A DNA stretch of 26,638 nt from an uncultured Erysipelotrichaceae bacterium (lineage in GTDB: Bacteria > Bacillota_I > Bacilli_A > RF39 > UBA660), in contig CACZQZ010000004.1 in the NCBI GenBank assembly GCA_902783405.1, positions 1 to 26,638 on the forward strand, in the 5' to 3' direction. Position numbers and translations under genes: made by a program. Of this stretch, positions 2,389-17,215 are shown one piece after another. Below the pieces are notes generated by a model. It searched no databases, was not told the DNA's origin, and saw only the letters and a program-made list of their open reading frames with translations. Each line of letters starts with the position of its first letter. Position 1 is the first letter of the stretch.

Positions 2389-3828
2389 ATGGAAAAAATT
2401 ACAATTGATTCATTACTTCAAAATCTTGAAGGAAGGTCACTCACTGAATTAGAAAAAATTCGTAAGGCGTATAATTATGCAGATAATTTACATTATGGAC
2501 AACTGAGACAAAGCGGAGAAGCATATATTACGCATCCACTTACTGTAGCTTATATTTTATCTGAACTTGGAGCAGATACGGATACAATATGTGCTGGACT
2601 TTTACATGATACACTAGAAGATACGGAAACAACCAAAGAAGAAATTGCAGAGTTATTTAATAAAGATGTTGCTAATTTAGTAGATGGAGTAACCAAAATT
2701 AGTAAGTTAAATTTTTCATCAAAACAAGAACAAAATATGGCTAATGCTAGAAAAATTATTACAAGTATTACAAATGATGTAAGAATTATTATTATTAAAC
2801 TTGCTGATCGCTTACATAATATGCGAACTTTAGAGTATAAATCAGAATATAAGCAAAAAGAAAATTCAATAGAAACGATGGAAATTTTTGTTCCTATTGC
2901 TTATCATATTGGAACTTACCGAATCAAAAGTGAACTTGAAGATTTATCATTACGTTATTTGAAACCAGATATGTATAAACAAATAGAAGATAAAAAAATA
3001 AAAGTGGAAGAAGATAGCAAAACGTGCTTAAAAGAAATGTATGAACAAATAAAAGATATATTAACTAGAAAAGATATTCCTAATGAAATTAAAGTTAGAA
3101 CTAAAAATATTTATGGTATTTATAAAAGATTAAATGATGGCCATAAATTATCTGATATTCATGACTTGTTATCATTAAAAATAATGGTTGATGATATACC
3201 AAATTGTTATCAAACACTTGGTATGATTCATAATATTTATCATCCAATTAATAATAAATTTAAAGATTATATTTGTAATCCCAAAACAAATATGTATAAA
3301 TCTCTTCATACAACGGTATTTGGACCAGAAGAAAGACTTGTACAAACACAGATAAGAACTTTTGATATGGATAAAGTAGATTCTTTTGGACTAACAGCTT
3401 ACTGGAATATTAGTAAAGGAAATGCTAGAGATATTATGCAAAAAGAATTAAAAGAAAAATATCAATTCTTTAGATCTCTTTTAGAAATTAATAAAGCATT
3501 TGGAGATAACAGTGAATTTATTGAACAAGTAAAAAATGAATTATTATCAGATAAAATATATGTATATACATCTAAAGGAGATATCATAGAACTTCCTAAA
3601 GGATCAACACCAATTGATTTTGCTTACAAAATACATACTGAACTGGGAAATACAATGGTAGCTGCTATTGTAAATGATGAGTATGTACCAATTGATTGTA
3701 CTTTAAAGAATCAAGATAGAGTAAGAATTATTAAAGATGATTTATCTTTTGGGCCTAGAAAAGATTGGGAAGATAAAGTCGTAACAACAAAAGCTAAAAG
3801 GAAAATTAAGGAATTTAATAAAAAATAA
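2389..3828 (+). CDS. RelA/SpoT family protein (479 aa): HD hydrolase + degenerate synthetase + TGS, no ZFD/ACT domains
   Basis: HD motifs RQSGEAYITHP, LLHDTLEDT, KLADRLHNMRTL; synthetase-like KDYICNPKTNMYKSLHTTV and QTQIRT; TGS motif LPKGSTPIDFAYKIHTELG. RBS AAGGAGG. Confidence 0.95.
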   Translation: MEKITIDSLLQNLEGRSLTELEKIRKAYNYADNLHYGQLRQSGEAYITHPLTVAYILSELGADTDTICAGLLHDTLEDTETTKEEIAELFNKDVANLVDGVTKISKLNFSSKQEQNMANARKIITSITNDVRIIIIKLADRLHNMRTLEYKSEYKQKENSIETMEIFVPIAYHIGTYRIKSELEDLSLRYLKPDMYKQIEDKKIKVEEDSKTCLKEMYEQIKDILTRKDIPNEIKVRTKNIYGIYKRLNDGHKLSDIHDLLSLKIMVDDIPNCYQTLGMIHNIYHPINNKFKDYICNPKTNMYKSLHTTVFGPEERLVQTQIRTFDMDKVDSFGLTAYWNISKGNARDIMQKELKEKYQFFRSLLEINKAFGDNSEFIEQVKNELLSDKIYVYTSKGDIIELPKGSTPIDFAYKIHTELGNTMVAAIVNDEYVPIDCTLKNQDRVRIIKDDLSFGPRKDWEDKVVTTKAKRKIKEFNKK

Positions 3829-3884: not shown

Positions 3885-5096
3885 ATGGAGATTAAATATG
3901 ACTTAACAGAAAAAGAATTAAAAGAGGTAGCAAAAAAAAATAATAAAACAATTGAAGAAGTTGCTAACGATTATAAATATGCATTAAAAGATTTAGAATA
4001 TTCATTAAAAGAGATAAATTCAATAATTGAAAAAAACAATTATAAAACTGATTTTAATAATATCAATATTAAAGGGTATGGAAAGAATGATGAATTAAAA
4101 AATAAATATATATGTTATGATAATATTGAAAAGGCCAATACATATAACATAGATGATATGGCTATTGTTACTGGATTTGGACCAACGAGTGCACCAACAG
4201 CCGGTACTTTATCGTCAATTTTTAAAGTATTAGAACTACAACGAGAAACAGGCATATATACACATATTATCATATCAGAACTTAGTGCACTTAATTCAAG
4301 ACAAAAACCATTAGATGATTTGTTTTTATATACTAAACAGTTCATTTCTTTTATAAAAAAACTTGGCTTTGATGAATCAAATGGGGAAATTAGAACTCAT
4401 AATTTCTTGGATCACTCCAGAATTTTTTCGATTATTTCAAGTGTTTTTAAAATTAGTGATTTTATAGGTGGAGAAGTAACAGATGAAATGTATAAGAGAT
4501 TAAATTTACTTGGAAATGATTACTCAACAATCGTTAGTCAAGTGTATACTGTTGCTGATATTGTTTTGCCAATCATAAGAGATAAGAAAAAATTTGTTAT
4601 AGTTCCAGCAGGACTAGAAGAACATTTATATCCATATCTTGCTCGTGTAAGTGTAGAAAGAATAAAAAGTAAATCAGGAGGAATAAATAATTTAATAGAA
4701 AAAGATGCGACCGTTTGTGCTTTATATGGTAAATTAATTAGTGGATTATTTCCTTACGTTAAAATGTCAAAGAGTATTAAAGAATCATCAATTAACTTAG
4801 GAGATACCAAAGAAGAAATTTATCAAAAAATAGTGGAATGTGGAAAAAGAAATGAGGAAGTAATATTACAGATGATTGTTCTTGCTTCTAATTGGAAATC
4901 GTCTGAAGTTCATATGGCAACAAAAGCATTTGAAAACATGGAAAACAATTATGATGAATGGTTAAAATATAAAATAAAGTATTATAATTTTTTTATAGAA
5001 CTTAAGCAATTGTGGGATGATTCTAAATATAATAAGTTCATAGATACATATAATGAGTTATTTAAGGAGAAAGAAAATGAAATTAATTATCTGTGA
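3885..5096 (+). CDS. Divergent class Ic aminoacyl-tRNA synthetase-like protein (archaeal-type TrpRS/TyrRS-like), function unknown
   Basis: GFGPTSAPTAGT in place of GFxPSGxxHLGH; IIISELSAL; VADIVLP; VPAGLEE; SGLFPYVKMSKS followed by INLGDTKEEIYQKI. RBS GAGAGGT. Confidence 0.75.
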   Translation: MEIKYDLTEKELKEVAKKNNKTIEEVANDYKYALKDLEYSLKEINSIIEKNNYKTDFNNINIKGYGKNDELKNKYICYDNIEKANTYNIDDMAIVTGFGPTSAPTAGTLSSIFKVLELQRETGIYTHIIISELSALNSRQKPLDDLFLYTKQFISFIKKLGFDESNGEIRTHNFLDHSRIFSIISSVFKISDFIGGEVTDEMYKRLNLLGNDYSTIVSQVYTVADIVLPIIRDKKKFVIVPAGLEEHLYPYLARVSVERIKSKSGGINNLIEKDATVCALYGKLISGLFPYVKMSKSIKESSINLGDTKEEIYQKIVECGKRNEEVILQMIVLASNWKSSEVHMATKAFENMENNYDEWLKYKIKYYNFFIELKQLWDDSKYNKFIDTYNELFKEKENEINYL

Positions 5097-5868
5097 TATG
5101 AGTGGTATTGCTTCAAGTAAGGGTGTAAATAATGAGATATTATTAAATACACTTAATAACTTGAAAAATTATGAATGCACTTTTTGCACTGGTAAAGGAT
5201 ATAATGGAGGGTATCAAACTTTGAAAGATATTAATTTAAAAGTACCATTTATATGTGAAAATGGTTCTGTTATAGTAACTAAAGATGGTACCGCACTATA
5301 TCATGATAAAATGGATTATAATAAAATAAAAAAATTAATTTGTAAGTTAAATAAAATGCCATATGAATTTTTGGCATATGTTGATTTGAAATCCCATAAA
5401 TATAAATTTTTAAAAGGATGTAAAAAGCTAAGTGAAGATTTGAGTCAACCATGGTTTTATAGTGAAGAAATCTATGACAATATAGATGAATTTTTAAATA
5501 ACATAGATAAAAATAATATTTGCAGAATAACAACTAGAGGATTGGAACTAGATAATTCAATAGAAGAACTTAAAGATTTTGATGTTGTATTATCAGAAAA
5601 TGAATTTCATTCTATTTGTAATAAGGGAACGAATAAAGGCTTTGGAGTAAAAAAATTAGCAGATATTTATAACATTAAATTAAATGATATCATTATTATT
5701 GGAAATGATTTGAATGATATTGATATGTTTAAATTAGAGTGCAGTTTAAAAATTGCCACAGGTGAAACAAAGCCACCACGAGAACTAATTGATTTATCTG
5801 ATGTTTATGTTCCTTTATGTGATTTACCTGATTTTTTAACAAAAATTGACAAAAAAAATGATATATGA
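5077..5868 (+). CDS. Cof-type HAD-superfamily (IIB) hydrolase with atypical motifs (263 aa)
   Basis: MKLIICDMSG (motif I variant), CTGK, FICENGSVI, KGTNKGFGVKKL, IIIGNDLNDIDMF. RBS AAGGAG at 5064-5069 supports ATG 5077; overlaps the upstream gene by 20 nt. Confidence 0.85.
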   Translation: MKLIICDMSGIASSKGVNNEILLNTLNNLKNYECTFCTGKGYNGGYQTLKDINLKVPFICENGSVIVTKDGTALYHDKMDYNKIKKLICKLNKMPYEFLAYVDLKSHKYKFLKGCKKLSEDLSQPWFYSEEIYDNIDEFLNNIDKNNICRITTRGLELDNSIEELKDFDVVLSENEFHSICNKGTNKGFGVKKLADIYNIKLNDIIIIGNDLNDIDMFKLECSLKIATGETKPPRELIDLSDVYVPLCDLPDFLTKIDKKNDI

Positions 5869-5899
5869 TAGTATAAAAACAAAAAAGGGAGGAAGTATT

Positions 5900-7051
5900 A
5901 TGGGTGATATAGTTTTAACTGGTGATAGACCAACAGGAAGATTGCATTTAGGACATTTAGTTGGCTCATTATCCCAAAGAGTAGAATTGCAAAATTCTGG
6001 ACAGTTTGAACAGATTTTCATTGAAATAGCTGATGCCCAAGCAACAACGGATAATTCTGGAAACATTCAGAAGGTTAAGGACAATGTTATTGAAGTTGCA
6101 TTAGATTATCTTTCTTGTGGAATTGATCCAACAAAAAGTACAATTTTTTTACAATCAGAAGTACCAGAATTGAGTGATTTAACATTTTATTATATGAATT
6201 TAGTAACTTTAGCTAGATTGCAAAGAAATCCAACAGTAAAACAAGAAATTATATATAGAGGATTTAATAATACTATTCCAGTTGGATTTATGACGTATCC
6301 AATTAGTCAGGCAGCAGATATTACAGCATTTAATGCTAATGTAATACCTGTTGGTGACGATCAACTTCCAATGATAGAACAGACAAGAGAAATCGTAAGA
6401 ACATTTAATAGATTATATGGTGAAACTTTAGTTGAACCAAGAGCGGTATTACCTAAAAATGAATCTTGTCAAAGGTTACCAGGAACTGATGGACAAGCAA
6501 AAATGAGTAAGTCTATGGGAAATTGTATATTTCTAGCTGACTCTCCAGAAGAAGTTAAAAGAAAAGTAATGGGAATGTATACGGATCCTAATCATTTAAA
6601 AGTTTCTGATCCTGGGAAAACAGAAGGTAATCCAGTATTTATATATTTAGATGCTTTCTGTAAAGATAAACATTTTAAAGAATATTTTACCAATCAAGAA
6701 ACAGGAAAAATGGAATATAAAAATTTAGATGAATTAAAGGCACATTATGAACGTGGTGGCTTAGGAGATATAAAAGTGAAAAAATTCTTAAATTATGTTC
6801 TTCAAGATACTTTGACCCCAATACGTTCTAGAAGGCAAGAATATGAACAACACATATTAGAAGTATATAAAATTTTATTTGATGGAAGTGATAAAGCTAG
6901 AAAAATTGCTGCTGAAACACTTGGAAAAGTTAAAAAAGCTATGGGATTAGATTACAGAAATGATTTAGAATTAATTAATAATCAATGTGCTAAATATGGT
7001 TCGTCACCAATTAAAGTAGAAGAAAAAAAACTAGAGGCATATAAAAAATAG
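5900..7051 (+). CDS. trpS: Tryptophan--tRNA ligase, TrpRS-II (TGDRPTG) subtype (383 aa)
   Basis: TGDRPTGRLHLGH, IADAQA, RLQRNPTVKQE, YPISQAADI, PVGDDQLPMIEQ, KMSKS, YTDPNH. RBS GGAGG supports ATG 5900 rather than 5846. Confidence 0.96.
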   Translation: MGDIVLTGDRPTGRLHLGHLVGSLSQRVELQNSGQFEQIFIEIADAQATTDNSGNIQKVKDNVIEVALDYLSCGIDPTKSTIFLQSEVPELSDLTFYYMNLVTLARLQRNPTVKQEIIYRGFNNTIPVGFMTYPISQAADITAFNANVIPVGDDQLPMIEQTREIVRTFNRLYGETLVEPRAVLPKNESCQRLPGTDGQAKMSKSMGNCIFLADSPEEVKRKVMGMYTDPNHLKVSDPGKTEGNPVFIYLDAFCKDKHFKEYFTNQETGKMEYKNLDELKAHYERGGLGDIKVKKFLNYVLQDTLTPIRSRRQEYEQHILEVYKILFDGSDKARKIAAETLGKVKKAMGLDYRNDLELINNQCAKYGSSPIKVEEKKLEAYKK

Positions 7052-7070
7052 GATTTCATATCCTATTTTT
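7044..7070. terminator. Bidirectional terminator between convergent trpS and kinase-like gene
   Basis: AAAAATAGGA-tttcata-TCCTATTTTT perfect 10 bp inverted repeat overlapping both stop codons. Confidence 0.85.
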
Positions 7071-8193
7071 GTTTTACATGAATTGTTTTAATTATATAGT
7101 TAAATTTTTCTCTATAATTAAACCCTGATTTTAATATGAAACTTTCTATATTTTTAAAAATATCATTTAATTCTATCGTTCTTTTTTCTATATCAATGTT
7201 ATTATAGTTTAGTAATTCCTGAAATAGTAATACTGTTGGAGCAAGACTTAATTCTAAAAAGGATTTAACAATTTCGGTGGAGGAACATTTAGATATTTCA
7301 ATATTTTCTTTTTCCGTTATAGATACTTTTAAAGAATGTGTAATTCGCATATCACTAAATTCAACATTTTTTCCGATTATATCAAAATTAATCGAAAATT
7401 GATTTTTTTTACCATATTTAAATAATTCATTTCTATTTTTGTTTTTCATAGAAAGAAATGTCTCATTTATTATTCCTTTTTCTAAAAAGTAATCTTCAAA
7501 TGCTAAGTATGTTCCAACTCTAATATTAAAATAGTTTCGAATATTGTATGGTAAAATAGCACCTTGTTTTGTAATGTAAGTAGTTTCTTCTGTGATTATA
7601 TCCCAATTATTTAATGCAAATAGTAATGCAAAAGTAGTTTTACCTCCAAGACTTGAATTATTAATTAATATATTTTGATTATCTTTATTTACTAATCCAC
7701 CGTGTATACCATACAGTTCTCCGTACATAAGATAAGGTGTTAATAGTAAAATATTAATCATTGTAATTGCTTTTTTATTTTTTTTTACAATCATGAAACA
7801 TTCTTGTTTATTTTTATTAAAAATATATATAAAATAGGCATAACATTTTATTATGTAATATTTTTTGTCTTTTGAGCATTTTGCAAGTGAAGTAGTTAAT
7901 GTCGCTTTGTTAAAATCTTTAATAGCATTTGTTTCAATTAAATCGTTACTTTTGATATAATTGTTTATTCTATTAAAAATATTTTCATCTTCTACAATAT
8001 ATGTAATCAAAGTGTTATTACTGTTTTGTCCTTTAAAAAGATTATTAAAAGCATTGGAAAAATCGATTAATTTTTTTGAATAAAATTCATAGTAACAATT
8101 TACTTGTGTTATTAACTTGTTGTTTTTAAAAGTAATTTCTTTTTTTTTATGATTTTTTTTGTATTGATTTATTTCATTTATGATCTGTCTCAT
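7063..8193 (-). CDS. HPr kinase-related P-loop protein (HprK-related family), atypical motifs
   Basis: IHGGLV...ILINNSSLGGKTT...IITEETTYI matches the H(A/G)xxV...GxSGxGKS/T...xDD pattern of HprK-related kinases. Overlaps the upstream nucleotidyltransferase gene by 20 nt. Confidence 0.65.
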   Translation of the reverse strand: MRQIINEINQYKKNHKKKEITFKNNKLITQVNCYYEFYSKKLIDFSNAFNNLFKGQNSNNTLITYIVEDENIFNRINNYIKSNDLIETNAIKDFNKATLTTSLAKCSKDKKYYIIKCYAYFIYIFNKNKQECFMIVKKNKKAITMINILLLTPYLMYGELYGIHGGLVNKDNQNILINNSSLGGKTTFALLFALNNWDIITEETTYITKQGAILPYNIRNYFNIRVGTYLAFEDYFLEKGIINETFLSMKNKNRNELFKYGKKNQFSINFDIIGKNVEFSDMRITHSLKVSITEKENIEISKCSSTEIVKSFLELSLAPTVLLFQELLNYNNIDIEKRTIELNDIFKNIESFILKSGFNYREKFNYIIKTIHVKQK

Positions 8194-9271
8194 TATATAT
8201 CCTCCTATATTTATGAATTACATCATATGAAAATATTCGTTCTGTTATTGTTGAAGAAGTTATCATCTTTTTATTTTCATCTTCTTGCTCAAATATTATA
8301 TTTAATATATTTTCTGTTTTAATTTTACGTAATAAACTCTCAATTTGATTGCTTTTACTATCTGGAAATAATTCAGTTGTATATGTTAGTGAAAAATAAA
8401 TATATTTTTCTAAACTATATTTTTTAATCTCTTGATATAGAATATCTATATCAATTTCAGTAAAGTATTTTTTTATAAAATAATAAATGTCAATAAATTT
8501 ATATAAATCTAAAACTTTTCTTTTTTTTAATATACCGACTAGTGATGAATCTTTATAGAGATGTATACATAATTCTATAAAATTATGATAATAGTTTAAA
8601 GAATATATTGGGATGTTATCATTTTTTATAATTGAAATTCTATTTTTTAAAAAATAATCTACAATTTCATTATTGTTTTGACTCCAGTCTATTGAAAAAT
8701 TTAAATCAACATCAATGGTTTCGACAGCAGGATTATTGTTTTTTCTCACAAATGGTGCGGTTTCACCTCTGGTTAAAATACTTTTATCTAATTCTTCTTG
8801 TGTAAACTTTATTATTTTTTTATTTTTATAATCATATTTTCCTTGTATGAATCCTAAGTTATGTAAAATATTTGTTACTACTGGAATAGAATCCTTTTTT
8901 ATCAATATATCAATATCATTACTTGCTCTAGATCCGTATTTGAATAATGTATTATTTAAAATAGAACCTTTTAAAAAAACATATTCAATATTATTTTTAT
9001 CTAATTCATTAGAAATAATATTTATCCATTTATTTTGTTCTAATGTTCTCTCTTTTTGTAATTCATTTATCATGTATGTTGTGAAATATACTGGATAGTC
9101 AAATTTTCTTACACCGATTTTTTCCATCTTTTCATATGTTAAGCCGGCAACTCTATGGTATGTTAGGTATCCTAAAATATTAATCCAATTTACATTATTT
9201 AAAAAAAAATCATCGTGTACATTTACATCATATTTTAATAATTCCAAAATTAATTTATGTTCTTGATTCAT
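8174..9271 (-). CDS. Nucleotidyltransferase family protein (uncharacterised NTP_transf_5 type)
   Basis: FLKGSILNNTLFKYGSRASNDIDILI and C-terminal LCIHLYK...FIDIYYF pattern. RBS GGAGG on the minus strand. Confidence 0.85.
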   Translation of the reverse strand: MNQEHKLILELLKYDVNVHDDFFLNNVNWINILGYLTYHRVAGLTYEKMEKIGVRKFDYPVYFTTYMINELQKERTLEQNKWINIISNELDKNNIEYVFLKGSILNNTLFKYGSRASNDIDILIKKDSIPVVTNILHNLGFIQGKYDYKNKKIIKFTQEELDKSILTRGETAPFVRKNNNPAVETIDVDLNFSIDWSQNNNEIVDYFLKNRISIIKNDNIPIYSLNYYHNFIELCIHLYKDSSLVGILKKRKVLDLYKFIDIYYFIKKYFTEIDIDILYQEIKKYSLEKYIYFSLTYTTELFPDSKSNQIESLLRKIKTENILNIIFEQEDENKKMITSSTITERIFSYDVIHKYRRIYNETDHK

Positions 9272-9362
9272 ACATTATTTGCCTCCCACAATGAAATTAA
9301 AGTATTTAATATATTCTATCATAAATCATCAAATTTAGAAATAAATTTTTCATATAGATTGT

Positions 9363-9391
9363 TTGTGTTATTTTAAGTTTTGTGATAAAAT
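9363..9391 (+). promoter_or_regulatory. Rightward promoter of the divergent intergenic region (AKR / HAD-TrpD-like unit)
   Basis: TTGTGT (9363-9368), 17 nt spacer, TG-a-TAAAAT extended -10 (9386-9391). A minus-strand TG-a-TAGAAT near 9314-9322 could drive the leftward operon. Confidence 0.55.
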
Positions 9392-9420
9392 ATGGGGAAT
9401 AAATCATTTGAGGTGATTTC

Positions 9421-10299
9421 ATGGATGATATTCGTATTTCAAAGATAGGATTAGGGACTTGGTTACTGGGTGGAGATGTTAAGGCAAATATTAATAATAA
9501 TGATGAAAAAGACTTAAATGCTATTAAGTATGCGATTAAAAATGGAATTAACCATATAGACACATCAGAAAGTTATTCTGGTGGAAAGAGTGAAATACTA
9601 ATTGGACAATCAATAAAATGTTTTGAACGTAATAAAATTTTTATTGCTACTAAAGTTAGAGAGTGGAATTTATCATATGATAAACTTATATTATCATGTA
9701 TGAAATCTTTAAAACGGTTGGATACAAATTATATAGATCTATATTATGTGCATAAACAAAATAAAGCAATTCCAATTGAAGAAACATGCAAAGCATTAAA
9801 CTATTTATTAGAAAAAGGTTTTATAAAAAATGTCGGATTATCAAATGTTGGCATAGAAACGATTGAAAAATTTAATTTATTATTAGATAAGCAAGTATAT
9901 GCAGTTCAAAATCAGTATAATTTGATTTGTAGAGAGTCTCAGGTTAAAGGAATTATTGAATATTGTAGAAAAAATAATATTAAATTTATATGTTGGAGAC
10001 CAATTTTATTATCATATCCGGGAGTCTCTGATCCGATGTATAAAAAAGGTACTTATCCTGTGCTTGATGAAATGGCAAAAAAATATCATGTTTCGAATGT
10101 TCAAGTCGTTGCTAAATGGTTGCTACAGCAAGATAACGTATATATTATATTTAAGAGTAATAATATAAAGCATATTCAGGAAATATTAGAAACACAAAAT
10201 TTTAATCTTTCAAGGAAAGATTGGCAAATATTAAACTATAATTTTCCAATTCAATTTGACAGGGGATGTGCAAGTAATGAATTTTATGAAGTTTCCTAA
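9421..10299 (+). CDS. Aldo/keto reductase
   Basis: IGLGTW, GINHIDTSESY (Asp/Tyr), IATK (Lys), DLYYVH (His), VGLSN, QNQYNL. RBS GAGGTG. Confidence 0.95.
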   Translation: MDDIRISKIGLGTWLLGGDVKANINNNDEKDLNAIKYAIKNGINHIDTSESYSGGKSEILIGQSIKCFERNKIFIATKVREWNLSYDKLILSCMKSLKRLDTNYIDLYYVHKQNKAIPIEETCKALNYLLEKGFIKNVGLSNVGIETIEKFNLLLDKQVYAVQNQYNLICRESQVKGIIEYCRKNNIKFICWRPILLSYPGVSDPMYKKGTYPVLDEMAKKYHVSNVQVVAKWLLQQDNVYIIFKSNNIKHIQEILETQNFNLSRKDWQILNYNFPIQFDRGCASNEFYEVS

Positions 10300-12079
10300 A
10301 GCATTTCTACTTGATTTAGACGGCACTGTATTGGATACAGAATCATTGTATTTACAATTAATGATGAATTATAATAAAAAATATGGTCTACATATTTCAA
10401 AACAATTTTATATTAATAACTTTTTAGGAAAATCTAGGGATGTTATATCAGAAATTATGAAAATAAGATGGAAAGATAAATATGATGAAAACGAATATTG
10501 GATGGGCTTATTAAAATATAGAAAAGATTATTTAAAAAATAATAAAGTTAAAGCAAAAGAAGGATTTTTAGAATTTATAAAATATGTAAAACTAAATCAT
10601 AGTTATATTGGAATTGTGACATCAAATTCTTTGGATTTAGTAAAATTTTTACTACAACAAGCAAATATAAATGAAAATGATTTCGATATTATTATTTGTA
10701 GAGATAATGTGGAAAAGATAAAACCATATTCAGATTTATATGAATTTGCTATAAAAAAATTAAGAATAAAAAAAGAAGATATCATTGTTATAGAAGATAG
10801 CCCTATCGGTATTGAGGCAGCTATAAATGCTAATTTAAAAATTATAAATATAAAAGATATTGCTTTTGTAAATAAAGATTTAAATCAGAAATGTTGCATG
10901 ACTATCAATTCATTCTATGATATCATTAATTTTATGAAAATGTTGGAGGTCAATATGGAAATAATCAAGTCAAAAAAAAACAAAGAACCTTTTGAATCTT
11001 TGTATAAATTGAATGTAGGTTTATCCTTAGATGAATATGAGGCAGAAGAAGCTATGAACATTATATTAAATGAATCGGATATACAAAAAAGAATTAGTTT
11101 ATTAACAATGTTATTAAATGGCATAATGATAAAAGGGCCAACGGTTAACGAAATTAGTGGATTATTAACTGCTTCATTAAATATGGATGATGTACTAAAA
11201 AGTAATAAGTTAGAAATTAAAATGCCTAATAATGATATGATTGTTGGCGTTGCATCTAGTGGAAAAAAAGGAATTAAAACAATTAATATAACAACCGTTT
11301 CATGTTTTGTAGCTGCTGCATGTGGTGTAAATATTGCGAAGGCATGTTCACATTCTACATCATCAAAGACTGGATCAACTGATTTTTTAGACATTTGTGG
11401 TATAAATGTAAATATACCATTTGAAAAAAAAGTTGAAATATTTAAAAAACACCATATTTCATTCTTTTCTATTGAAGAGACAACACCAAAATTTGCTAAA
11501 GTTTATGGTGGAATATTTTATGCACCACATGCAATGAGTTTTGGATTAGCAGGATTAAGTTTTCCAATAAAAGTTGATTCACTTGCATATGGATTATCAC
11601 ATCCAAATGTAAAATTATCTGCTGAAGTTTTGAAAAAATTTGGGGTGAAGAATGCACTTATCTATTCTTCAACATACGATGGTATTCATTTTTTAGATGA
11701 ACTGTTGCCAGTTGGATGTGTAAATTTTGCTAGGATTAAAAATGGGAATGTAGAAAAAACTATTTCAGCGGATATACATGAAGCTTTAGATTTGACATCT
11801 GGTTTTGATTTATCTAGTATTAAAGAAAAAGAAGATAAAAAAGACAATGTGATAGAATCTATAAAAATTTTACACGGTGATGGTACGGAAAGTCAAATTG
11901 ATACAATTTGTATTAATGTTGCAATATTTTTATTACTTGGTCATAAAGTAGATTCATTAGAAGAAGGTTATAGGAATGCAAAAAGTATAATTAAAACTAA
12001 TAAAGTATGGAATTTATTTTTAAATGTAGTTGAATTATATGGTGGTAGTAAAGAGTATATTGAAAGTTTACTACTTTAG
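10277..12079 (+). CDS. Fusion: HAD-IA phosphatase (N-terminal ~226 aa) + divergent anthranilate phosphoribosyltransferase (TrpD)-like domain (from Met at 10955)
   Basis: HAD motifs DLDGTVLDTE, IVTSN, KIKPYSDLY, IEDSPIGIEAA. TrpD-like motifs KGPTVNEISG, ASSGKKGIKTINITT, KACSHSTSSKTGSTD, FLDE, INVAIFL. RBS AGGGG before 10277 and a second RBS GGAGGT before in-frame ATG 10955. Confidence 0.85.
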   Translation: MNFMKFPKAFLLDLDGTVLDTESLYLQLMMNYNKKYGLHISKQFYINNFLGKSRDVISEIMKIRWKDKYDENEYWMGLLKYRKDYLKNNKVKAKEGFLEFIKYVKLNHSYIGIVTSNSLDLVKFLLQQANINENDFDIIICRDNVEKIKPYSDLYEFAIKKLRIKKEDIIVIEDSPIGIEAAINANLKIINIKDIAFVNKDLNQKCCMTINSFYDIINFMKMLEVNMEIIKSKKNKEPFESLYKLNVGLSLDEYEAEEAMNIILNESDIQKRISLLTMLLNGIMIKGPTVNEISGLLTASLNMDDVLKSNKLEIKMPNNDMIVGVASSGKKGIKTINITTVSCFVAAACGVNIAKACSHSTSSKTGSTDFLDICGINVNIPFEKKVEIFKKHHISFFSIEETTPKFAKVYGGIFYAPHAMSFGLAGLSFPIKVDSLAYGLSHPNVKLSAEVLKKFGVKNALIYSSTYDGIHFLDELLPVGCVNFARIKNGNVEKTISADIHEALDLTSGFDLSSIKEKEDKKDNVIESIKILHGDGTESQIDTICINVAIFLLLGHKVDSLEEGYRNAKSIIKTNKVWNLFLNVVELYGGSKEYIESLLL

Positions 12080-12196
12080 TTTTAAAATATTTCTTATAAA
12101 TTTGATTATGATTTTTAAATGATGTGAATTTATGATGGGTTTATAAAAGATTGAGGAAAATGCTAAAAAATTAATATTAAAGAGGTTTTAGAAGAT

Positions 12197-12466
12197 ATGA
12201 TTTATAAATTTAAATTCTTTTTTACAGATGGAACTTCACAACTTGGTGATGCTTGGAGTAAAAATCCGCGAACATTATATAATGATTTTGATGGGTTGAT
12301 GGATTGGAATGAGTTTGAACAATTACATAATGAAGATTTAACAGTTCATCAAGTTTTAGAATTAGCTATGGAAGTTTATAAACCAATAAGAAAAGAATAT
12401 TATAGAATTGAAATAGTCAATGTTGATACTGGTGAAGTTGTAGATTATATTGATATTAGAGAATAA
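12197..12466 (+). CDS. Hypothetical protein (89 aa, acidic)
   Basis: RBS AGAGGT, clean ORF, motif resemblance to 12964-13275. Confidence 0.75.
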   Translation: MIYKFKFFFTDGTSQLGDAWSKNPRTLYNDFDGLMDWNEFEQLHNEDLTVHQVLELAMEVYKPIRKEYYRIEIVNVDTGEVVDYIDIRE

Positions 12467-12508
12467 AATGAAAGGAAAAAATAGGGTATATTTGAAATAA
12501 TTATTTGC

Positions 12509-12533
12509 AGAAGGATTTTTTCCTTCTTTTTTT
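12509..12533 (+). terminator. Intrinsic terminator
   Basis: AGAAGGA-ttttt-TCCTTCT followed by a T-run. Confidence 0.75.
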
Positions 12534-12605
12534 GTTGAAAAAATTTGATAAATTAAATCTTATAACGATATAAAGAGAATAATAACAACTTATGAAAAAG
12601 ATTCA

Positions 12606-12923
12606 TTGCTTAATTTATTAATTAAAAATGATGAATTACAAAGAAAAATAAGAGGATATCATTATCGTAATAATAAATTATATTCACTAATAGTATTGTA
12701 TTTTGTAGAAGGTAAGAATGAATATTTATTATCAGCATTTAAATGGTATTTTGATGATAAAAACTTCTCTATTAAAAATATTAATAATTCATATAGTATT
12801 GATGATTGTTTGTTTTACGGCTTTCCAATTTTTGATAAAGATTACTATGATATTATGAAGAAAGTGATAATTAATTTAAATAAAAATTATAAAAACAAAA
12901 TAAGAATTAGAAATCAGTATTAA
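12606..12923 (+). CDS. Hypothetical protein (105 aa, TTG start), possibly frameshifted from ATG 12592
   Basis: ORF fills the gap between neighbours. Weak RBS; out-of-frame ATG-A5 14 nt upstream. Confidence 0.5.
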   Translation: MLNLLIKNDELQRKIRGYHYRNNKLYSLIVLYFVEGKNEYLLSAFKWYFDDKNFSIKNINNSYSIDDCLFYGFPIFDKDYYDIMKKVIINLNKNYKNKIRIRNQY

Positions 12924-12963
12924 TTTGTGTTATTATGTTTGTAATGGATGGTGGTAAACTATT

Positions 12964-13275
12964 ATGATAAATTTAGAAGAATTAAAATTTAATAAGAATA
13001 ATCAATTATATGAAACCGGATATAGGATTGTGTATTTTTATGAAGATGGTAATTATTCTATTGGAGAGTTTTGTAAAACAATTGAAGGTTTTATGATTGG
13101 ATTTGCTGATAGTAACCCAATTATTGATGATGAAGATATACCAAAATTTATTTCAAATAAGGATTTATTAAATAGATGTTTAAAATATGATGAAAAAGCA
13201 ATTGGTGCTGCTATTTATAAAACAGATGGGACTTTAATTGATAGAATAAGTAGTAAAGCTAATAAAAAAATCTGA
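12964..13275 (+). CDS. Hypothetical protein (103 aa)
   Basis: RBS GGTGGT, clean ORF, motif resemblance to 12197-12466. Confidence 0.75.
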   Translation: MINLEELKFNKNNQLYETGYRIVYFYEDGNYSIGEFCKTIEGFMIGFADSNPIIDDEDIPKFISNKDLLNRCLKYDEKAIGAAIYKTDGTLIDRISSKANKKI

Positions 13276-13366
13276 GTTTTTTGTACTTAGTATTATCATG
13301 AAATAAATTTGATAATAAAGTAATGTTTTACCATTTTTTTAATGCTTAAAAATTTTTTACAAATAT

Positions 13367-13387
13367 AAGGAAGAAATTCCTTTTTTT
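13367..13387 (+). terminator. Intrinsic terminator abutting the next promoter
   Basis: AAGGAA-gaaa-TTCCTT hairpin with GNRA loop, followed by a T-run. Confidence 0.65.
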
Positions 13388-13388
13388 G

Positions 13389-13418
13389 TTGAAAAATGGT
13401 TATAAATTATAGTATAAT
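13389..13418 (+). promoter_or_regulatory. Sigma-A type promoter for the AMP-dependent ligase gene
   Basis: TTGAAA (13389-13394), 18 nt spacer, TATAAT (13413-13418). Confidence 0.7.
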
Positions 13419-13461
13419 TTAGTTAGAAGAATAAGGGGACATAATGAAAGGATAAAGTAAT

Positions 13462-15330
13462 ATGACAAAAGAAGATTTATTAAAATTAAAAATGAAATTA
13501 TCTAAATTATCTGAAGAAGAACAAAAGAAAAGAAACCTTTATTTAAGAGATTTAGCAAGTGGAGAACTGCAAGGACCACCAACGGGATATCCTAGTATAG
13601 ATAAACCATGGCTAAAACATTATGATTTTTCCAAATTAGATTATTTGGATATTAAAAAAACAGTATATCAAGAAGTTTACGATAATAATTTACCATATCA
13701 AAAAGAATTAGCACTCGAATTTTTTGGTACAAAGATATCATATAAAAAATTTTTTGAAAATGTTCAAAGCGCTGTTAAAGCGTTAAAAGAATATGGCGTG
13801 AAAAAAGGTGATTATGTTTCATTTTGCATTGCAGGAATTCCTGAAACTGCATACCTGTTTTATGCTTGTTCTTATATTGGAGCTATAGGAAACTTCATGA
13901 CACCAAATATGTATATGGAAGATATGGCAGAGAATGTAAACATTTCAGAATCAAAAATATTTTTTGTGATGGATAAATTCTATGAAAAAATAAGTCCTGC
14001 ACTTAAAAAAGCTAATGTAGATAATGTTATAATAGTACCAACACTTAATTCTTCGCTATTAAAATATGTTTCTCCAAAATTTAAAATTGTTAATTCAAAT
14101 GAATTATTTTGGAATCAATTTATAAAAGATGGAAAATATAAGAAAGCAGAAGAACCAGTAAAATATGAAAAAGATTCTCCACTGGTAGTTGTTTATTCAT
14201 CCGGAACAACAGGTAGATATAAAGGAATACTACTATCTAATGATAGTTTTCAAAATTCTGTTCATAGTTATCCATCGATTGGTGTGGATATTTCTAGAAA
14301 TCAAAAATTTTATCAAATTATACCACCATGGGTATCTACAGGTTTAAGCACATCACTTCATTTACCATTAACTTATGGTGTTTCAGTATTTATGGATCCT
14401 CGTTTTGAAAGAGAACCATTTGTAAAAAATATTATTAAACATAAGATAAATTATGCAGTTGCTACAACTAGTATGTATGAGGGATTTTTAGATGAAAACT
14501 TAGTTAAAAATAAAATTTGGCCATCCATTAATTATCCATTTCAAGGTGGAGAAGCATTACCTATTGAAAAACAAATAAAAATAGATGAAGCTTTCAAAAA
14601 GCATGGATGCGATGCAAAAATTAGATCTGCTTATGGTCAATGTGAATGTGGAGCCGCAATTGTTACTCAAACACAAAAAATAGATCATCCAAAAGGATCT
14701 TCTGGAATTCCACTTCCTGGTATAAATCTAGCCATTGTTGATGATGATAAAAATGAATTAACTGTTAATACAAGAGGAAATATTTTTGTTGATACTCCAT
14801 GTGGAATGTTAAAATATTTTAATAATGATAAATTGACAGAAGAATATTTTTATATTGATAAACAAGGTACTAAATGGAGTCAAACAGGAGATATTGGATA
14901 TATAGATGAAAATGGTAATTTGTTTATAGAAGGAAGAAGTAAAGATTATACAATAGTAAATGATAACAAAATCTATAATTTCGATATTGAAAAAATCATT
15001 TTACAAGATTCTAGAATTAAAGATTGCGATGTAGTTGCTAGAACTGATGGCGAAAAGCAAGAATTATTTGCACATATTATTTATGTAGATGAAGTAGCAA
15101 ACAATAAAGATTTCAATATTGAAGAAAATTTAAAAGAAATACAAGAAAGAATATATCAATATTATGATAATCTAAATATGGTTCCTAATTTATTTAAGAT
15201 AAGAACAGAATTTCCTTGTGCTATGTCTGGAAAAAGGGACGTACGGGCTATGCAACAAGATAATGACAATGTTATTTTCTTAAATTCTAAAGAATTAGTT
15301 AAAACTTTAAAAAAAGTTAAAAGTATGTAA
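13462..15330 (+). CDS. AMP-dependent synthetase/ligase (class I adenylate-forming, acyl-CoA ligase-like)
   Basis: YSSGTTGRYKG, YGQCE, SGIPLPG, TGDIG, GRSKD, C-terminal SGKRD. Confidence 0.93.
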   Translation: MTKEDLLKLKMKLSKLSEEEQKKRNLYLRDLASGELQGPPTGYPSIDKPWLKHYDFSKLDYLDIKKTVYQEVYDNNLPYQKELALEFFGTKISYKKFFENVQSAVKALKEYGVKKGDYVSFCIAGIPETAYLFYACSYIGAIGNFMTPNMYMEDMAENVNISESKIFFVMDKFYEKISPALKKANVDNVIIVPTLNSSLLKYVSPKFKIVNSNELFWNQFIKDGKYKKAEEPVKYEKDSPLVVVYSSGTTGRYKGILLSNDSFQNSVHSYPSIGVDISRNQKFYQIIPPWVSTGLSTSLHLPLTYGVSVFMDPRFEREPFVKNIIKHKINYAVATTSMYEGFLDENLVKNKIWPSINYPFQGGEALPIEKQIKIDEAFKKHGCDAKIRSAYGQCECGAAIVTQTQKIDHPKGSSGIPLPGINLAIVDDDKNELTVNTRGNIFVDTPCGMLKYFNNDKLTEEYFYIDKQGTKWSQTGDIGYIDENGNLFIEGRSKDYTIVNDNKIYNFDIEKIILQDSRIKDCDVVARTDGEKQELFAHIIYVDEVANNKDFNIEENLKEIQERIYQYYDNLNMVPNLFKIRTEFPCAMSGKRDVRAMQQDNDNVIFLNSKELVKTLKKVKSM

Positions 15331-15346
15331 ACTTTTAATTTTTTTT
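15311..15346 (+). terminator. Probable AT-rich terminator overlapping the ligase stop codon
   Basis: TTAAAAGT-atgtaa-ACTTTTAA followed by T8. Confidence 0.5.
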
Positions 15347-15388
15347 ATGTTTTTTATGGTATACTTAAAGAAGGATAGGAATGGTATT

Positions 15389-17215
15389 ATGATTATAACA
15401 AAATCTACATTATTAATAATTTTTAGTATTATATATATAAGTGCAATGATTGGCATTTATTTTGCTAAAGAAAGAGAAAAAAATGAGGAAACTAGAATAT
15501 ATACATATCTTTTGATAACCAATTTATTTAGTTTGATATTTCAAATTTTATGCATTATATATTCATATAACTATGATTGTCTTAATATGCATATGTGTAA
15601 TTTTATATTTAAAACGTATTCTGTTTTATTTTTGGTTTATGTGACATATTTATTGATATATTTAGTCATTATTAGTTTTGATAATTATAAAAAAATTATG
15701 TGGGTAATTCATACATTATTAAATATTAGTGTTGTTATTACATTTTTATTACCAGCAAAATTATATGTATCCCCTGATAAGTCTTCTTTTTATACAACAG
15801 GATTAGCTATGGATTTTGTGTATTTTGTGTCGCTTGTTATTTCAACTTCCATTATTGCAATATTATTTATAAAAAGAAAAAAAATATCAAAAGTTAAAAC
15901 GATACCTTTACATAGTTTTGTTGTTCTTGGTTTAGTTGCAATGATTATTCAAAAAATAAATCCAGAATTAAGTATAATGAGCGCTGTTGAAACATTTTTA
16001 TGTTGTATGATGTATTTTACGATTGAAAATCCAGATTTAAAAATGATAAGACAACTAGAATTAGCAAAAAACGGTGCTGAAAAAGCAAATAGAGCTAAAT
16101 CAGATTTCTTATCTAGTATGTCTCATGAAATTAGAACACCACTAAATGCTATTGTAGGTCTTTCTGAAGATATTGCTTCATATAAAGATCAAGTACCAAA
16201 AGAAGTGGTAGAAGATACAGAAGACATCCGAAATGCATCCCAAACATTACTTGAAATTGTTGGAAATATCTTAGATATCAATAAAATTGAAAGTAATAAA
16301 ATAGAGATTGTAGAAACAACATATGTACCAAAAGAATTAATTGAAACATTAGCTAAAATAAATGCTACTAGAATAGGGGAAAAACCAATTCATTTTAATA
16401 TGAATATCGCAGAAGATCTTCCTTATGAACTTTTAGGCGATAAACTTCATATTAAAGAAATAATTAATAATTTACTTAGTAATGCTTTTAAGTATACAGA
16501 TAGAGGAGAAGTTACTTTAACAGTAAAATGTATTAATAAAGATAATCTTTCCAACTTAATTATCAGTGTAAAAGATACAGGCCGCGGAATTAAAAAAGAA
16601 AATATTGATAAATTATTTACTAAATTTGAACGACTAGGAGCAGACAGGAATACAACCATTGAGGGAACAGGACTAGGTCTTGCCATTACAAAAAATTTAA
16701 TTGAAATGATGGGGGGGACTATTAATGTTCAAAGTCAATTTGGAGAAGGATCTTTATTTGTTGTATTCTTACCACAAAAAATAAGTAAAATGGAAAAACC
16801 AGATGTTGTAGAGTTAAAACAAGAAGTTACTAAAGAAGTAAAAGATTATGGACATAAAAAAATACTTATTGTTGATGATAATATGCTAAATATTAAAGTA
16901 GCTAGAAGAGCGCTTTCTGATTTTAATTTTGAAATAGATGAAGCAACCGATGGATATAGATGTTTAGAAAAAGTAGTAAAAGGTAATGAATATGATTTAA
17001 TTTTAATGGATATTATGATGCCTAATATGGGTGGTGAAGAAACTTTATCTAAATTAAAAGAAAATCCAGAATTTAAAATACCTACTATTGCTTTAACTGC
17101 AGATGCTGTTGCTGGAGCAGAAGAAAAATATAAAGAAGAAGGATTTATTGATTATTTAGCAAAGCCTTTCTCAAGAAATCAGATTAAAGAAAAATTAGAG
17201 GAAATATTTAAATAA
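15389..17215 (+). CDS. Membrane-bound hybrid sensor histidine kinase/response regulator
   Basis: About 7 hydrophobic N-terminal segments; HisKA FLSSMSHEIRTPLNAIVG; HATPase NLLSNAFKYT, DTGRGI, GTGLGLAI; receiver ILIVDDN, ILMDIMMP, AKP. ATG 15389 is the Met with an RBS-like AGGA upstream. Confidence 0.95.
   Translation: MIITKSTLLIIFSIIYISAMIGIYFAKEREKNEETRIYTYLLITNLFSLIFQILCIIYSYNYDCLNMHMCNFIFKTYSVLFLVYVTYLLIYLVIISFDNYKKIMWVIHTLLNISVVITFLLPAKLYVSPDKSSFYTTGLAMDFVYFVSLVISTSIIAILFIKRKKISKVKTIPLHSFVVLGLVAMIIQKINPELSIMSAVETFLCCMMYFTIENPDLKMIRQLELAKNGAEKANRAKSDFLSSMSHEIRTPLNAIVGLSEDIASYKDQVPKEVVEDTEDIRNASQTLLEIVGNILDINKIESNKIEIVETTYVPKELIETLAKINATRIGEKPIHFNMNIAEDLPYELLGDKLHIKEIINNLLSNAFKYTDRGEVTLTVKCINKDNLSNLIISVKDTGRGIKKENIDKLFTKFERLGADRNTTIEGTGLGLAITKNLIEMMGGTINVQSQFGEGSLFVVFLPQKISKMEKPDVVELKQEVTKEVKDYGHKKILIVDDNMLNIKVARRALSDFNFEIDEATDGYRCLEKVVKGNEYDLILMDIMMPNMGGEETLSKLKENPEFKIPTIALTADAVAGAEEKYKEEGFIDYLAKPFSRNQIKEKLEEIFK

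Follow-up and report, generated by a model that had tools for sequence, protein, structure and literature searches.

A mobile cassette with a tryptophanyl-tRNA synthetase gene in an uncultured Erysipelotrichaceae bacterium: a possible tryptophan-type relative of the tyrocitabine pathway

We analyzed 26,638 nucleotides of DNA (hereafter the window) from an uncultured Erysipelotrichaceae bacterium of the rumen (assembly GCA_902783405.1, contig CACZQZ010000004.1), focusing on seven genes at positions 3885 to 12079, among them trpS, which encodes a tryptophanyl-tRNA synthetase (TrpRS). A preliminary description had proposed that these genes form an undescribed biosynthetic system that makes an aminoacyl-nucleotide mimic and carries trpS for immunity. 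Our favored interpretation, held with modest confidence, is that the seven genes are a horizontally mobile biosynthetic cassette and a tryptophan-specific relative of the tyrocitabine (tyb) pathway.

Listing of open reading frames (ORFs) and scans with Pfam and NCBIfam models confirmed all seven genes, their positions and their families, and the ORF coordinates upheld their arrangement in three units. The first unit, on the forward strand, comprises a class Ic synthetase-like ligase (3885-5096), a Cof-type HAD-IIB protein (Pfam Hydrolase_3; ORF 5053-5868, likely start at 5077, with AAGGAG 8 nt before the ATG) and the full TrpRS (ORF 5846-7051, likely start at 5900, with GGGAGG before the ATG). 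The second unit, on the reverse strand, contains a P-loop protein (7063-8193) and an NTP_transf_5 nucleotidyltransferase (8174-9271; PF14907, 103 bits). The third unit, again on the forward strand, contains an aldo-keto reductase (AKR; 9421-10299; PF00248, 199 bits) and a fusion of a HAD-IA domain with a TrpD-like domain (ORF 10256-12079, likely start at 10277; HAD_2 and Glycos_transf_3). The divergent intergenic region between the nucleotidyltransferase and reductase genes spans 149 bp (9272-9420), in agreement with the approximately 150 bp given earlier. A terminator common to the convergent pair is less certain. A 6-bp palindrome (TAGGAT..ATCCTA, two G-C pairs), flanked by T-runs, encloses the two stop codons, which are 11 nt apart. 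By sequence reading this palindrome is a weak candidate for a bidirectional terminator (7049-7066, no strand assigned); a terminator scan did not call it.

No transporter was found by family scans within 3885-12079, as had been noted before, and tRNA and Rfam scans of the window found no tRNA, T-box or other Rfam RNA. The absence of a normal trp pathway also holds at the genome level, as a search of the 87% complete assembly found neither trpB nor the gene for indole-3-glycerol phosphate synthase (IGPS).

The window is an entire contig (C4) of this 0.97-Mb assembly (G000) with approximately 25% G+C. At least three studies contributed bovine and sheep gut sequencing runs that contain near-identical DNA, which confirms that the assembly is sound at this place. 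Mis-binning was ruled out: thrS on the same contig is single-copy and 57-69% identical to its counterparts in congeners, and the contig is therefore part of the genome. Synteny with the congeners stops at thrS, and no island borders could be defined by this comparison.

Profile-guided scans gave 23 genome loci and 80 metagenome loci, onto which the proteins of the window and of distant cassette versions were mapped. Linkage was counted over the 45 loci that extend 3 kb or more to each side of the ligase gene; 18 closer cassettes form the window-type subset. All 45 well-flanked loci have a full trpS near the ligase gene, and 41 have a TrpD-like gene there. Among the four loci without it, one contig ends within the cassette and another has an integrase gene interrupting it. 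The same gene set appears in shuffled order from locus to locus, and the ligase is fused to different partners elsewhere: to a TrpD-like protein (717 and 736 aa) and to a HAD-IIB protein (590 aa; P0153). Taken with the HAD-IA::TrpD fusion of the window, these fusions chain together four of the seven genes. Co-occurrence across distant taxa had been suggested as a check on whether the genes belong together, and it is found, with rearranged orders and fusions.

Partner genes differ between cassette types. The window type has the AKR, a HprK-like protein (the P-loop protein discussed below) and NTP_transf_5 (each in 17 of the 18 closer loci), HAD-IIB, and often a short Rel protein. Cassettes of the candidate phyla radiation (CPR) carry a short-chain dehydrogenase/reductase (SDR) and an S-adenosylmethionine (SAM) methyltransferase, and a third type carries two unknown proteins, a methyltransferase and a HAD protein. 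In the myxobacterial type, the core is fused and accompanied by a thymidylate-kinase-like gene and a methyltransferase; the Micromonosporaceae type has a HAD protein, an AAA_33 kinase, an SDR and a DAO-type flavin oxidase. The ligase, its cognate synthetase and a phosphoribosyltransferase (PRTase) recur in every type, and a HAD phosphatase and a kinase are added in most. Pathways for specialized metabolites typically look like this, with tailoring enzymes that vary around a constant core.

In two cassette types, weak matches to UbiA-like membrane proteins (decaprenyl-phosphate phosphoribosyltransferase) were observed (L104, 11116-11877; L033, 1771-2748), which hints at a prenylated or lipid-linked product in those two versions. 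A cell-envelope pathway of the decaprenyl-phosphoribose kind was set aside for the window, since UbiA-like genes are absent from its cassette type.

The cassette is accessory and horizontally mobile. No ligase was found in five genomes of the same genus, in another 19 from the family, or among 399 sampled from the class; within the host's genus and class, the distribution is therefore patchy. The metagenome-assembled genomes (MAGs) that do carry it are labeled Bacilli, Tenericutes, Patescibacteria, Paceibacteria, Saccharibacteria, Elusimicrobia and Lithacetigena; other carriers are Micromonospora, Salinispora, Actinoplanes, Pilimelia and one Polyangia MAG. An integrase, a restriction system or a recombinase is encoded nearby in some loci. 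The ligase family is rare overall (184 representative clusters among 1.84 billion proteins), and homologs at 60-82% identity to the window protein are numerous in metagenomes.

The ligase scores 34.9 bits with PF00579. With the curated trpS model TIGR00233 it reaches 36.9 bits, below the cut-off of 176.75 bits, and it is also far below the tyrS cut-off. The position of the HIGH motif reads TAGT and that of GxDQ reads GLEE. The sub-cut-off score and the missing HIGH/TIGN signature rule out a canonical TrpRS. Invariant in the family are TGFGPTxxPTAGTLS, the Asp of ADIL (in YTVADIL), GxEEH and KMSKS. The ADIL Asp aligns with the indole-binding Asp132 of Bacillus TrpRS, and the Thr-x-Gly-Thr that replaces HIGH resembles the TIGN of bacterial TrpRS. 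An AlphaFold model of the protein (pLDDT 81) finds its best matches in the Protein Data Bank (PDB) among archaeal and eukaryotic TrpRS, with a template modeling (TM) score of approximately 0.6. As far as motifs and model can be read, these are the features of an active adenylate-forming enzyme for an indole-type substrate and not of a decayed paralog.

The fused protein has its HAD-IA domain up to approximately position 10950 and the TrpD-fold PRTase domain from approximately 10955 to 12079. The two parts form a single frame only in the window; all other loci examined encode them as separate genes with a slight overlap, and the single frame reflects either a recent fusion or a difference of one base in the assembly. 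The TrpD-like domain scores 134 bits with the curated trpD model, for which the cut-off is 199 bits. Its family retains NxST (which binds the 5-phosphate), SSxxGSxD and the acidic DE, and is without KHGN (KACS in the window) and without the anthranilate-binding Arg. A canonical anthranilate phosphoribosyltransferase TrpD is ruled out by the score, by the loss of GTGGD and KHGN, and by the missing trpB and IGPS genes. Likewise, no canonical trpD was found in the small carrier genomes checked. As for the reductase, most cassette types have one, with an SDR or a zinc-dependent alcohol dehydrogenase (Zn-ADH) substituting for the AKR in types other than that of the window.

In contrast to the ligase, the protein encoded at 5900-7051 is a full TrpRS, with 241 bits for TIGR00233 and thus above the cut-off. 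It is 79-85% identical to the cassette-linked TrpRS of most other Bacilli-type MAGs and only 34-50% identical to the TrpRS of five genomes of the same genus. In a phylogenetic tree, cassette-linked TrpRS are polyphyletic, with at least four separate clades, and some cassettes carry two TrpRS from different clades. It follows that TrpRS has been recruited or swapped repeatedly, which in turn speaks for selection on the presence of some TrpRS in the cassette. The preliminary description had called this trpS an extra copy. In the present 87% complete assembly the cassette copy is the only one found, whereas a second, ordinary trpS is present elsewhere in the genome of four other carriers (G423, G425, G426 and G427), which include a complete 1.54-Mb genome (behind L016) and Micromonospora phaseoli. 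We therefore regard the linked trpS as accessory.

Several observations on these synthetases stand apart. Three loci (L015, L062 and L063) have two full TrpRS genes each, of different clades, and in L015 one TrpRS type seems to be in the course of being replaced by another. One TrpRS clade has 32 members, all cassette-linked in our dataset (L017-L023, L052-L059, L076-L105), and eight of nine aligned members read T-[VI]-A-N at the TIGN position, so that the almost universal Gly of the HIGH-type motif is replaced by Ala. A resistant-type active site was considered for the window TrpRS, with Gln at the equivalent of His43, and rejected, as this Gln also occurs in the ordinary TrpRS of relatives and is not diagnostic. 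The window TrpRS contains no Trp residue at all (the genome mean is 0.55% in long ORFs).

The remaining genes have the character of tailoring enzymes. In the HAD-IIB protein, motif I reads CDMSG; the Asp+2 position, the general acid, is replaced by Ser in all 17 Bacilli-type orthologs, whereas distant relatives keep DxDG, and this substitution suggests that the protein is not an ordinary phosphatase. The P-loop protein had no sequence match in Pfam, NCBIfam or the PDB. The nearest neighbors of its predicted structure in the Atlas are a HprK-related kinase B and ScmC-like proteins (TM scores 0.58-0.72), from which a tailoring kinase is probable. The NTP_transf_5 gene adjoins the P-loop gene wherever it occurs in the closer cassettes, and its product is probably a tailoring enzyme as well.

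Upstream of the ligase, at 2389-3828 on the forward strand, lies a gene for a short Rel/SpoT paralog of 479 aa with HD, synthetase and TGS domains only (Pfam and NCBIfam). It is an extra paralog, as a second Rel is encoded on another contig of the genome (C104) and congeners have only a Rel of 723-746 aa. Short Rel genes adjoin the cassette in five further loci (L009, L011, L014, L016 and L036, the last being a tyrosine-type cousin), which makes it probable that this accessory gene travels with the Bacilli-type cassette. The catalytic EXQ of the synthetase domain reads QTQ in the window and in four Bacilli-type cassette-linked orthologs, and is kept in L088 and in the long Rel of the congeners. 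Judging from these residues, the short Rel may have hydrolase activity only and act together with the cassette.

A parallel family points to the meaning of the linkage. A distant ligase subfamily reads PH[VIL]GT where the TrpRS-linked subfamily reads PTAGT, and in four independent contexts these PH[VIL]GT ligases adjoin a tyrosyl-tRNA synthetase (TyrRS) that scores above the TIGR00234 cut-off. Two of the four contexts also have a TrpD-like gene and a Zn-dehydrogenase, and HAD, kinase, exporter or acyl-CoA-ligase-like genes recur among them. The match between ligase subfamily and neighboring synthetase, PTAGT with TrpRS and PH[VIL]GT with TyrRS, supports the core idea of our interpretation.

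Within the tyrosine-type loci, L167 is the most complete producer-like version among the loci seen; two ABC exporters, a fatty-acid-CoA-ligase-like gene, a radical SAM/SPASM gene and a 57-aa ORF adjoin its cassette. In L164, a 644-aa TyrRS with an N-terminal B3_4 domain (545-2479) is encoded beside a tyrosine-type ligase fusion. No similarity to a TrpD domain was found within the N-terminal part of the 911-aa tyrosine-type fusion.

The closest described precedent is tyrocitabine biosynthesis in Lactobacillus iners, as reviewed in PMC13235161 (summarizing Patel et al. Cell 2022). There, TybC glycosylates L-tyrosine with phosphoribosyl pyrophosphate (PRPP), with Amadori-type intermediates, TybE then reduces the sugar, and the TyrRS-like "abortive" synthetase TybB puts AMP on the carboxylate, which gives the active antibiotic (PMC13235161). 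A non-ribosomal peptide synthetase (NRPS), the stand-alone A-PCP-C protein TybD, masks the product as a prodrug, and TybA exports it (PMC13235161). The target of tyrocitabine, a member of a recently found class of nucleotide antibiotics, is unknown according to this 2026 review (PMC13235161). By analogy, the ligase of the window would be the counterpart of TybB and a probable adenylating enzyme, the TrpD-fold domain may correspond to TybC, and the AKR could take the part of TybE, the last match being by enzyme class. Clusters with TybB homologs have been reported in archaea and Candidatus bacteria (PMC13235161), and the matches of cassette-family proteins that we found in Nanoarchaeia, Woesebacteria and similar groups fit this report. 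No L. iners record was among the homolog-search, cluster and gene-context matches.

The two systems are alike in the proposed logic, in which an aromatic amino acid is modified by PRPP-dependent transfer, a reduction follows, and a non-charging TyrRS- or TrpRS-like enzyme adenylates the result. They are also alike in their occurrence in small-genome, host-associated Bacillota with strain-level patchiness. They differ in the amino acid, which is most likely tryptophan in the present case because of the invariant TrpRS neighbor and the distinct ligase subfamily. The window also lacks TybD and TybA and instead has two HAD proteins, the HprK-like protein, the NTP_transf_5 enzyme and the short Rel. 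The review mentions no cognate synthetase gene in tyb, nor does it state the protein family of TybC (PMC13235161).

This precedent changes several parts of the earlier proposal. Co-occurrence, patchiness, the second trpS of other carriers and the missing trp pathway speak for a single biosynthetic system for an aminoacyl-nucleotide mimic, equipped with a trpS of its own. On the other hand, the class is not undescribed, as tyrocitabine biosynthesis applies the same logic to tyrosine (PMC13235161). The PRTase had been assigned a separate amine or heterocycle as substrate; by the tyb precedent, the amino group of the amino acid itself would be ribosylated. Similarly, the synthetase-like protein would adenylate the modified amino acid rather than attach an amino acid to a nucleoside.

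What we observed directly are the identities of the genes, their linkage, fusions and mobility, and the pairing of ligase subfamily with synthetase; the product and each chemical step are proposed from precedent. By analogy with tyb, the cassette most likely converts tryptophan, PRPP and ATP into a tryptophanyl-AMP mimic. The TrpD-fold enzyme would move phosphoribose from PRPP to the amino group of L-tryptophan, and after an Amadori-type rearrangement the AKR would fix the sugar as an open polyol chain. The ligase, with its KMSKS and indole-binding Asp kept, could then adenylate the carboxylate of the modified tryptophan without transfer to tRNA, leaving a stable tryptophanyl-AMP mimic. In place of an NRPS, the two HAD proteins, the HprK-like protein and the nucleotidyltransferase may add or remove phosphate or nucleotide groups, and so tailor the product or mask it inside the producer. 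Finally, the co-carried TrpRS would keep translation of the producer running, most likely because TrpRS is the target. We infer this immunity role from three observations: trpS is linked throughout, ligase subfamily and synthetase correspond, and four other carriers have extra copies.

A number of observations weigh against this interpretation. A C-terminal helical domain is present in the ligase model, but TybB reportedly has no tRNA-binding domain (PMC13235161). In the TrpD-like family, the pyrophosphate loop GTGGD is rebuilt as GSGK[KE] (SSGKK in the window), and the donor substrate could therefore differ. The cassette trpS is the only trpS found in the present 87% complete genome and also in G424, a genome of approximately 1.1 Mb that lies mostly on one 1.04-Mb contig. 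The window-type TrpRS is nested in the tree among the ordinary TrpRS of related Bacilli, without special divergence, and its active-site motifs are typical of its Bacilli lineage, so its sequence gives no sign of a specialized resistant enzyme. The proposed kinship to TybB, TybC and TybE relies on architecture and on the functions that the review describes (PMC13235161). Neither an NRPS nor an exporter, which tyb uses for prodrug formation and export, is encoded within 3885-12079; an AMP-binding protein at 13462-15330 is without carrier or condensation domain. Metatranscriptome reads showed trpS transcripts of relatives only, and none was informative on the cassette. It would also be surprising for a genome of approximately 1 Mb to keep an antibiotic pathway.

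A farther-reaching version of the tyrocitabine-like interpretation is tentative, and we regard it as somewhat doubtful. In it, the invariant pairing of ligase subfamily and cognate synthetase would reveal that the target of the tyrocitabine class is the cognate synthetase. As a natural inhibitor of TrpRS that mimics tryptophanyl-adenylate, the product of the cassette would be the first of its kind, and the insensitive cassette TrpRS would have replaced the ancestral housekeeping enzyme, leaving the host dependent on its own island.

Other explanations of the gene set were weighed against a biosynthetic cassette. The locus could be a tryptophan housekeeping or regulatory module of small-genome auxotrophs, with the ligase as a sensor of Trp or tRNA-Trp that controls the PRTase in the manner of HisZ and HisG, or with a route for obtaining or sparing Trp that is co-expressed with TrpRS. 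Many carriers indeed have tiny genomes without a trp pathway, two of them have the cassette trpS as their sole copy found, the fusions of PRTase and synthetase paralog recall HisG/HisZ, and a Rel with a TGS domain adjoins the cassette. A metabolic or encoding role was also favored by Mukai et al. 2017 for the odd TrpRS operons of CPR bacteria (PMC5370408). However, the five congeners and the 399 sampled class genomes in which the ligase was not found are likewise small, and Micromonosporaceae carry the cassette although a canonical TrpD and a normal TrpRS are both present in the one genome checked. KMSKS is invariant in the ligase, unlike in HisZ, where catalytic motifs are lost; the variable methyltransferase, oxidase and kinase genes, and the exporters of some loci, look like tailoring functions, and the parallel tyrosine-type family does not fit a tryptophan module. 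We consider such a module rather unlikely. A resistance island in place of a producer appears unlikely too. It would combine an insensitive TrpRS with enzymes that inactivate an external TrpRS inhibitor or Trp analog by ribosylation, phosphorylation, nucleotidylation or reduction, the ligase acting as a decoy. Kinase, nucleotidyltransferase and reductase are typical drug-modifying activities, the nucleotidyltransferase has a weak match to Lnu(C) (NCBIfam), a tyrosine-type cousin carries APH-like and CAT-like genes, and the window cassette is without exporter; the mobile, patchy distribution is in line with this as well. Yet it is the PRTase, ligase and synthetase that form the invariant core, and the modifying enzymes vary by cassette type. 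The strict conservation of ATP and amino-acid motifs in the ligase, together with its fusion to the PRTase, points to consecutive catalytic steps, and the characterized tyb relative is a producer (PMC13235161).

Repair or modification of tRNA-Trp has much less in its favor. Here the ligase would deliver tRNA-Trp to the phosphatase, kinase, nucleotidyltransferase and Rel-type hydrolase for mending of its 3' end, and the enzyme set does resemble RNA-repair operons (HAD phosphatase, P-loop kinases, Pol-beta-type nucleotidyltransferase); the partner Rel has a TGS domain and is dead as a synthetase, and the ligase model keeps its C-terminal helical domain. But a TrpD-fold PRTase, a reductase and the common small-molecule oxidases and methyltransferases have no place in RNA repair, the repair-like genes are limited to one cassette type, and no tRNA gene is consistently linked, which together make this explanation very unlikely. 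The preliminary description had also raised an expansion of the genetic code similar to the pyl system, in which the cassette makes a Trp analog and the synthetase paralog charges a dedicated tRNA. A biosynthetic set does adjoin the gene of a synthetase-like protein whose ATP and amino-acid motifs are intact, but the window has no tRNA and no Rfam match, and no tRNA is consistently linked among 41 related loci (one tRNA-Trp, the rest other tRNAs or none). The single tRNA-Trp has a normal CCA anticodon, and the genome uses TGA, TAG and TAA alike as stop codons, so that this explanation is close to refuted. Neither the housekeeping module nor the resistance island nor tRNA repair, each of which explains some genes, accounts at once for the invariant PRTase-ligase-synthetase core, its mobility, tailoring genes that vary and a sister family of tyrosine type. 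The tRNA-Trp(CCA) gene in question lies directly after the TrpD-like gene in a water-buffalo MAG (L012, 18598-18671) and was seen in this one of the 41 cassettes.

A literature search on TrpD-like or synthetase-like clusters returned nothing specific to this cassette, which shares features with several other systems. Producer clusters with a second, insensitive copy of the target are known for indolmycin (TrpRS), mupirocin (IleRS) and albomycin (SerRS) (PMC9437257). As in these, a full synthetase gene lies inside a mobile biosynthetic cluster, and four other carriers have an ordinary extra copy; in contrast to these, the linked TrpRS come from several unrelated clades and not from one resistant lineage, and the cassette trpS is the sole one found here. 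The odd TrpRS operons of CPR bacteria (Mukai et al. 2017, PMC5370408) resemble the cassette in that an extra TrpRS-type gene of archaeal flavor stands beside a bacterial TrpRS in tiny genomes. However, they have a tRNA-Trp(A73) and an ORF1 of unknown fold, with no TrpD-like gene reported (PMC5370408), whereas the cassette has no consistently linked tRNA and has a TrpD-like partner in most loci.

The HprK-like P-loop protein adjoining a PF14907 nucleotidyltransferase is also reminiscent of a tailoring pair in lasso-peptide biosynthesis, but here the pair is embedded in a tryptophan cassette in 17 of the 18 closer loci, and no lasso precursor peptide, PqqD, cyclase or protease was found in the window or the related loci examined. 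HisZ is a class II, non-catalytic synthetase paralog that regulates HisG(S) in a core pathway and has lost its catalytic motifs. As with HisZ and HisG(S), a synthetase paralog is coupled physically or genetically to a PRPP-type transferase and is sometimes fused to it, but the present ligase is of class Ic, has kept KMSKS and is part of an accessory mobile cassette.

What is new here relative to tyrocitabine is a tryptophan-type variant with different tailoring genes, and a linkage to the cognate synthetase that is unmentioned in PMC13235161. If the interpretation is true, "abortive synthetase" chemistry would be a general route to aminoacyl-adenylate mimics. Gene transfer has carried the cassette into Bacilli of rumen and gut, CPR-type bacteria, actinomycetes and a myxobacterial MAG. 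The packaging with a matching synthetase leads to a direct, testable hypothesis on target and self-protection. Natural TrpRS and TyrRS inhibitors could serve as leads and insensitive synthetases as tools, and the system bears on competition among tiny-genome bacteria and on the capture of an essential translation gene by an accessory island.

Two features downstream of the cassette remain to be mentioned. The stretch at 12080-13460 contains three small ORFs (89, 105 and 103 aa) with no family match and no homolog in the related loci, and its GC skew is very high (0.49). It is followed at 13462-17215 by the AMP-binding enzyme (622 aa) and a hybrid histidine kinase/response regulator. This pair recurs on two other contigs of the genome (C18 and C33) and beside the cassette in three loci (L008, L011 and L047); it may be unrelated to the cassette, or may provide an acyl-activating partner as in one tyrosine-type locus.

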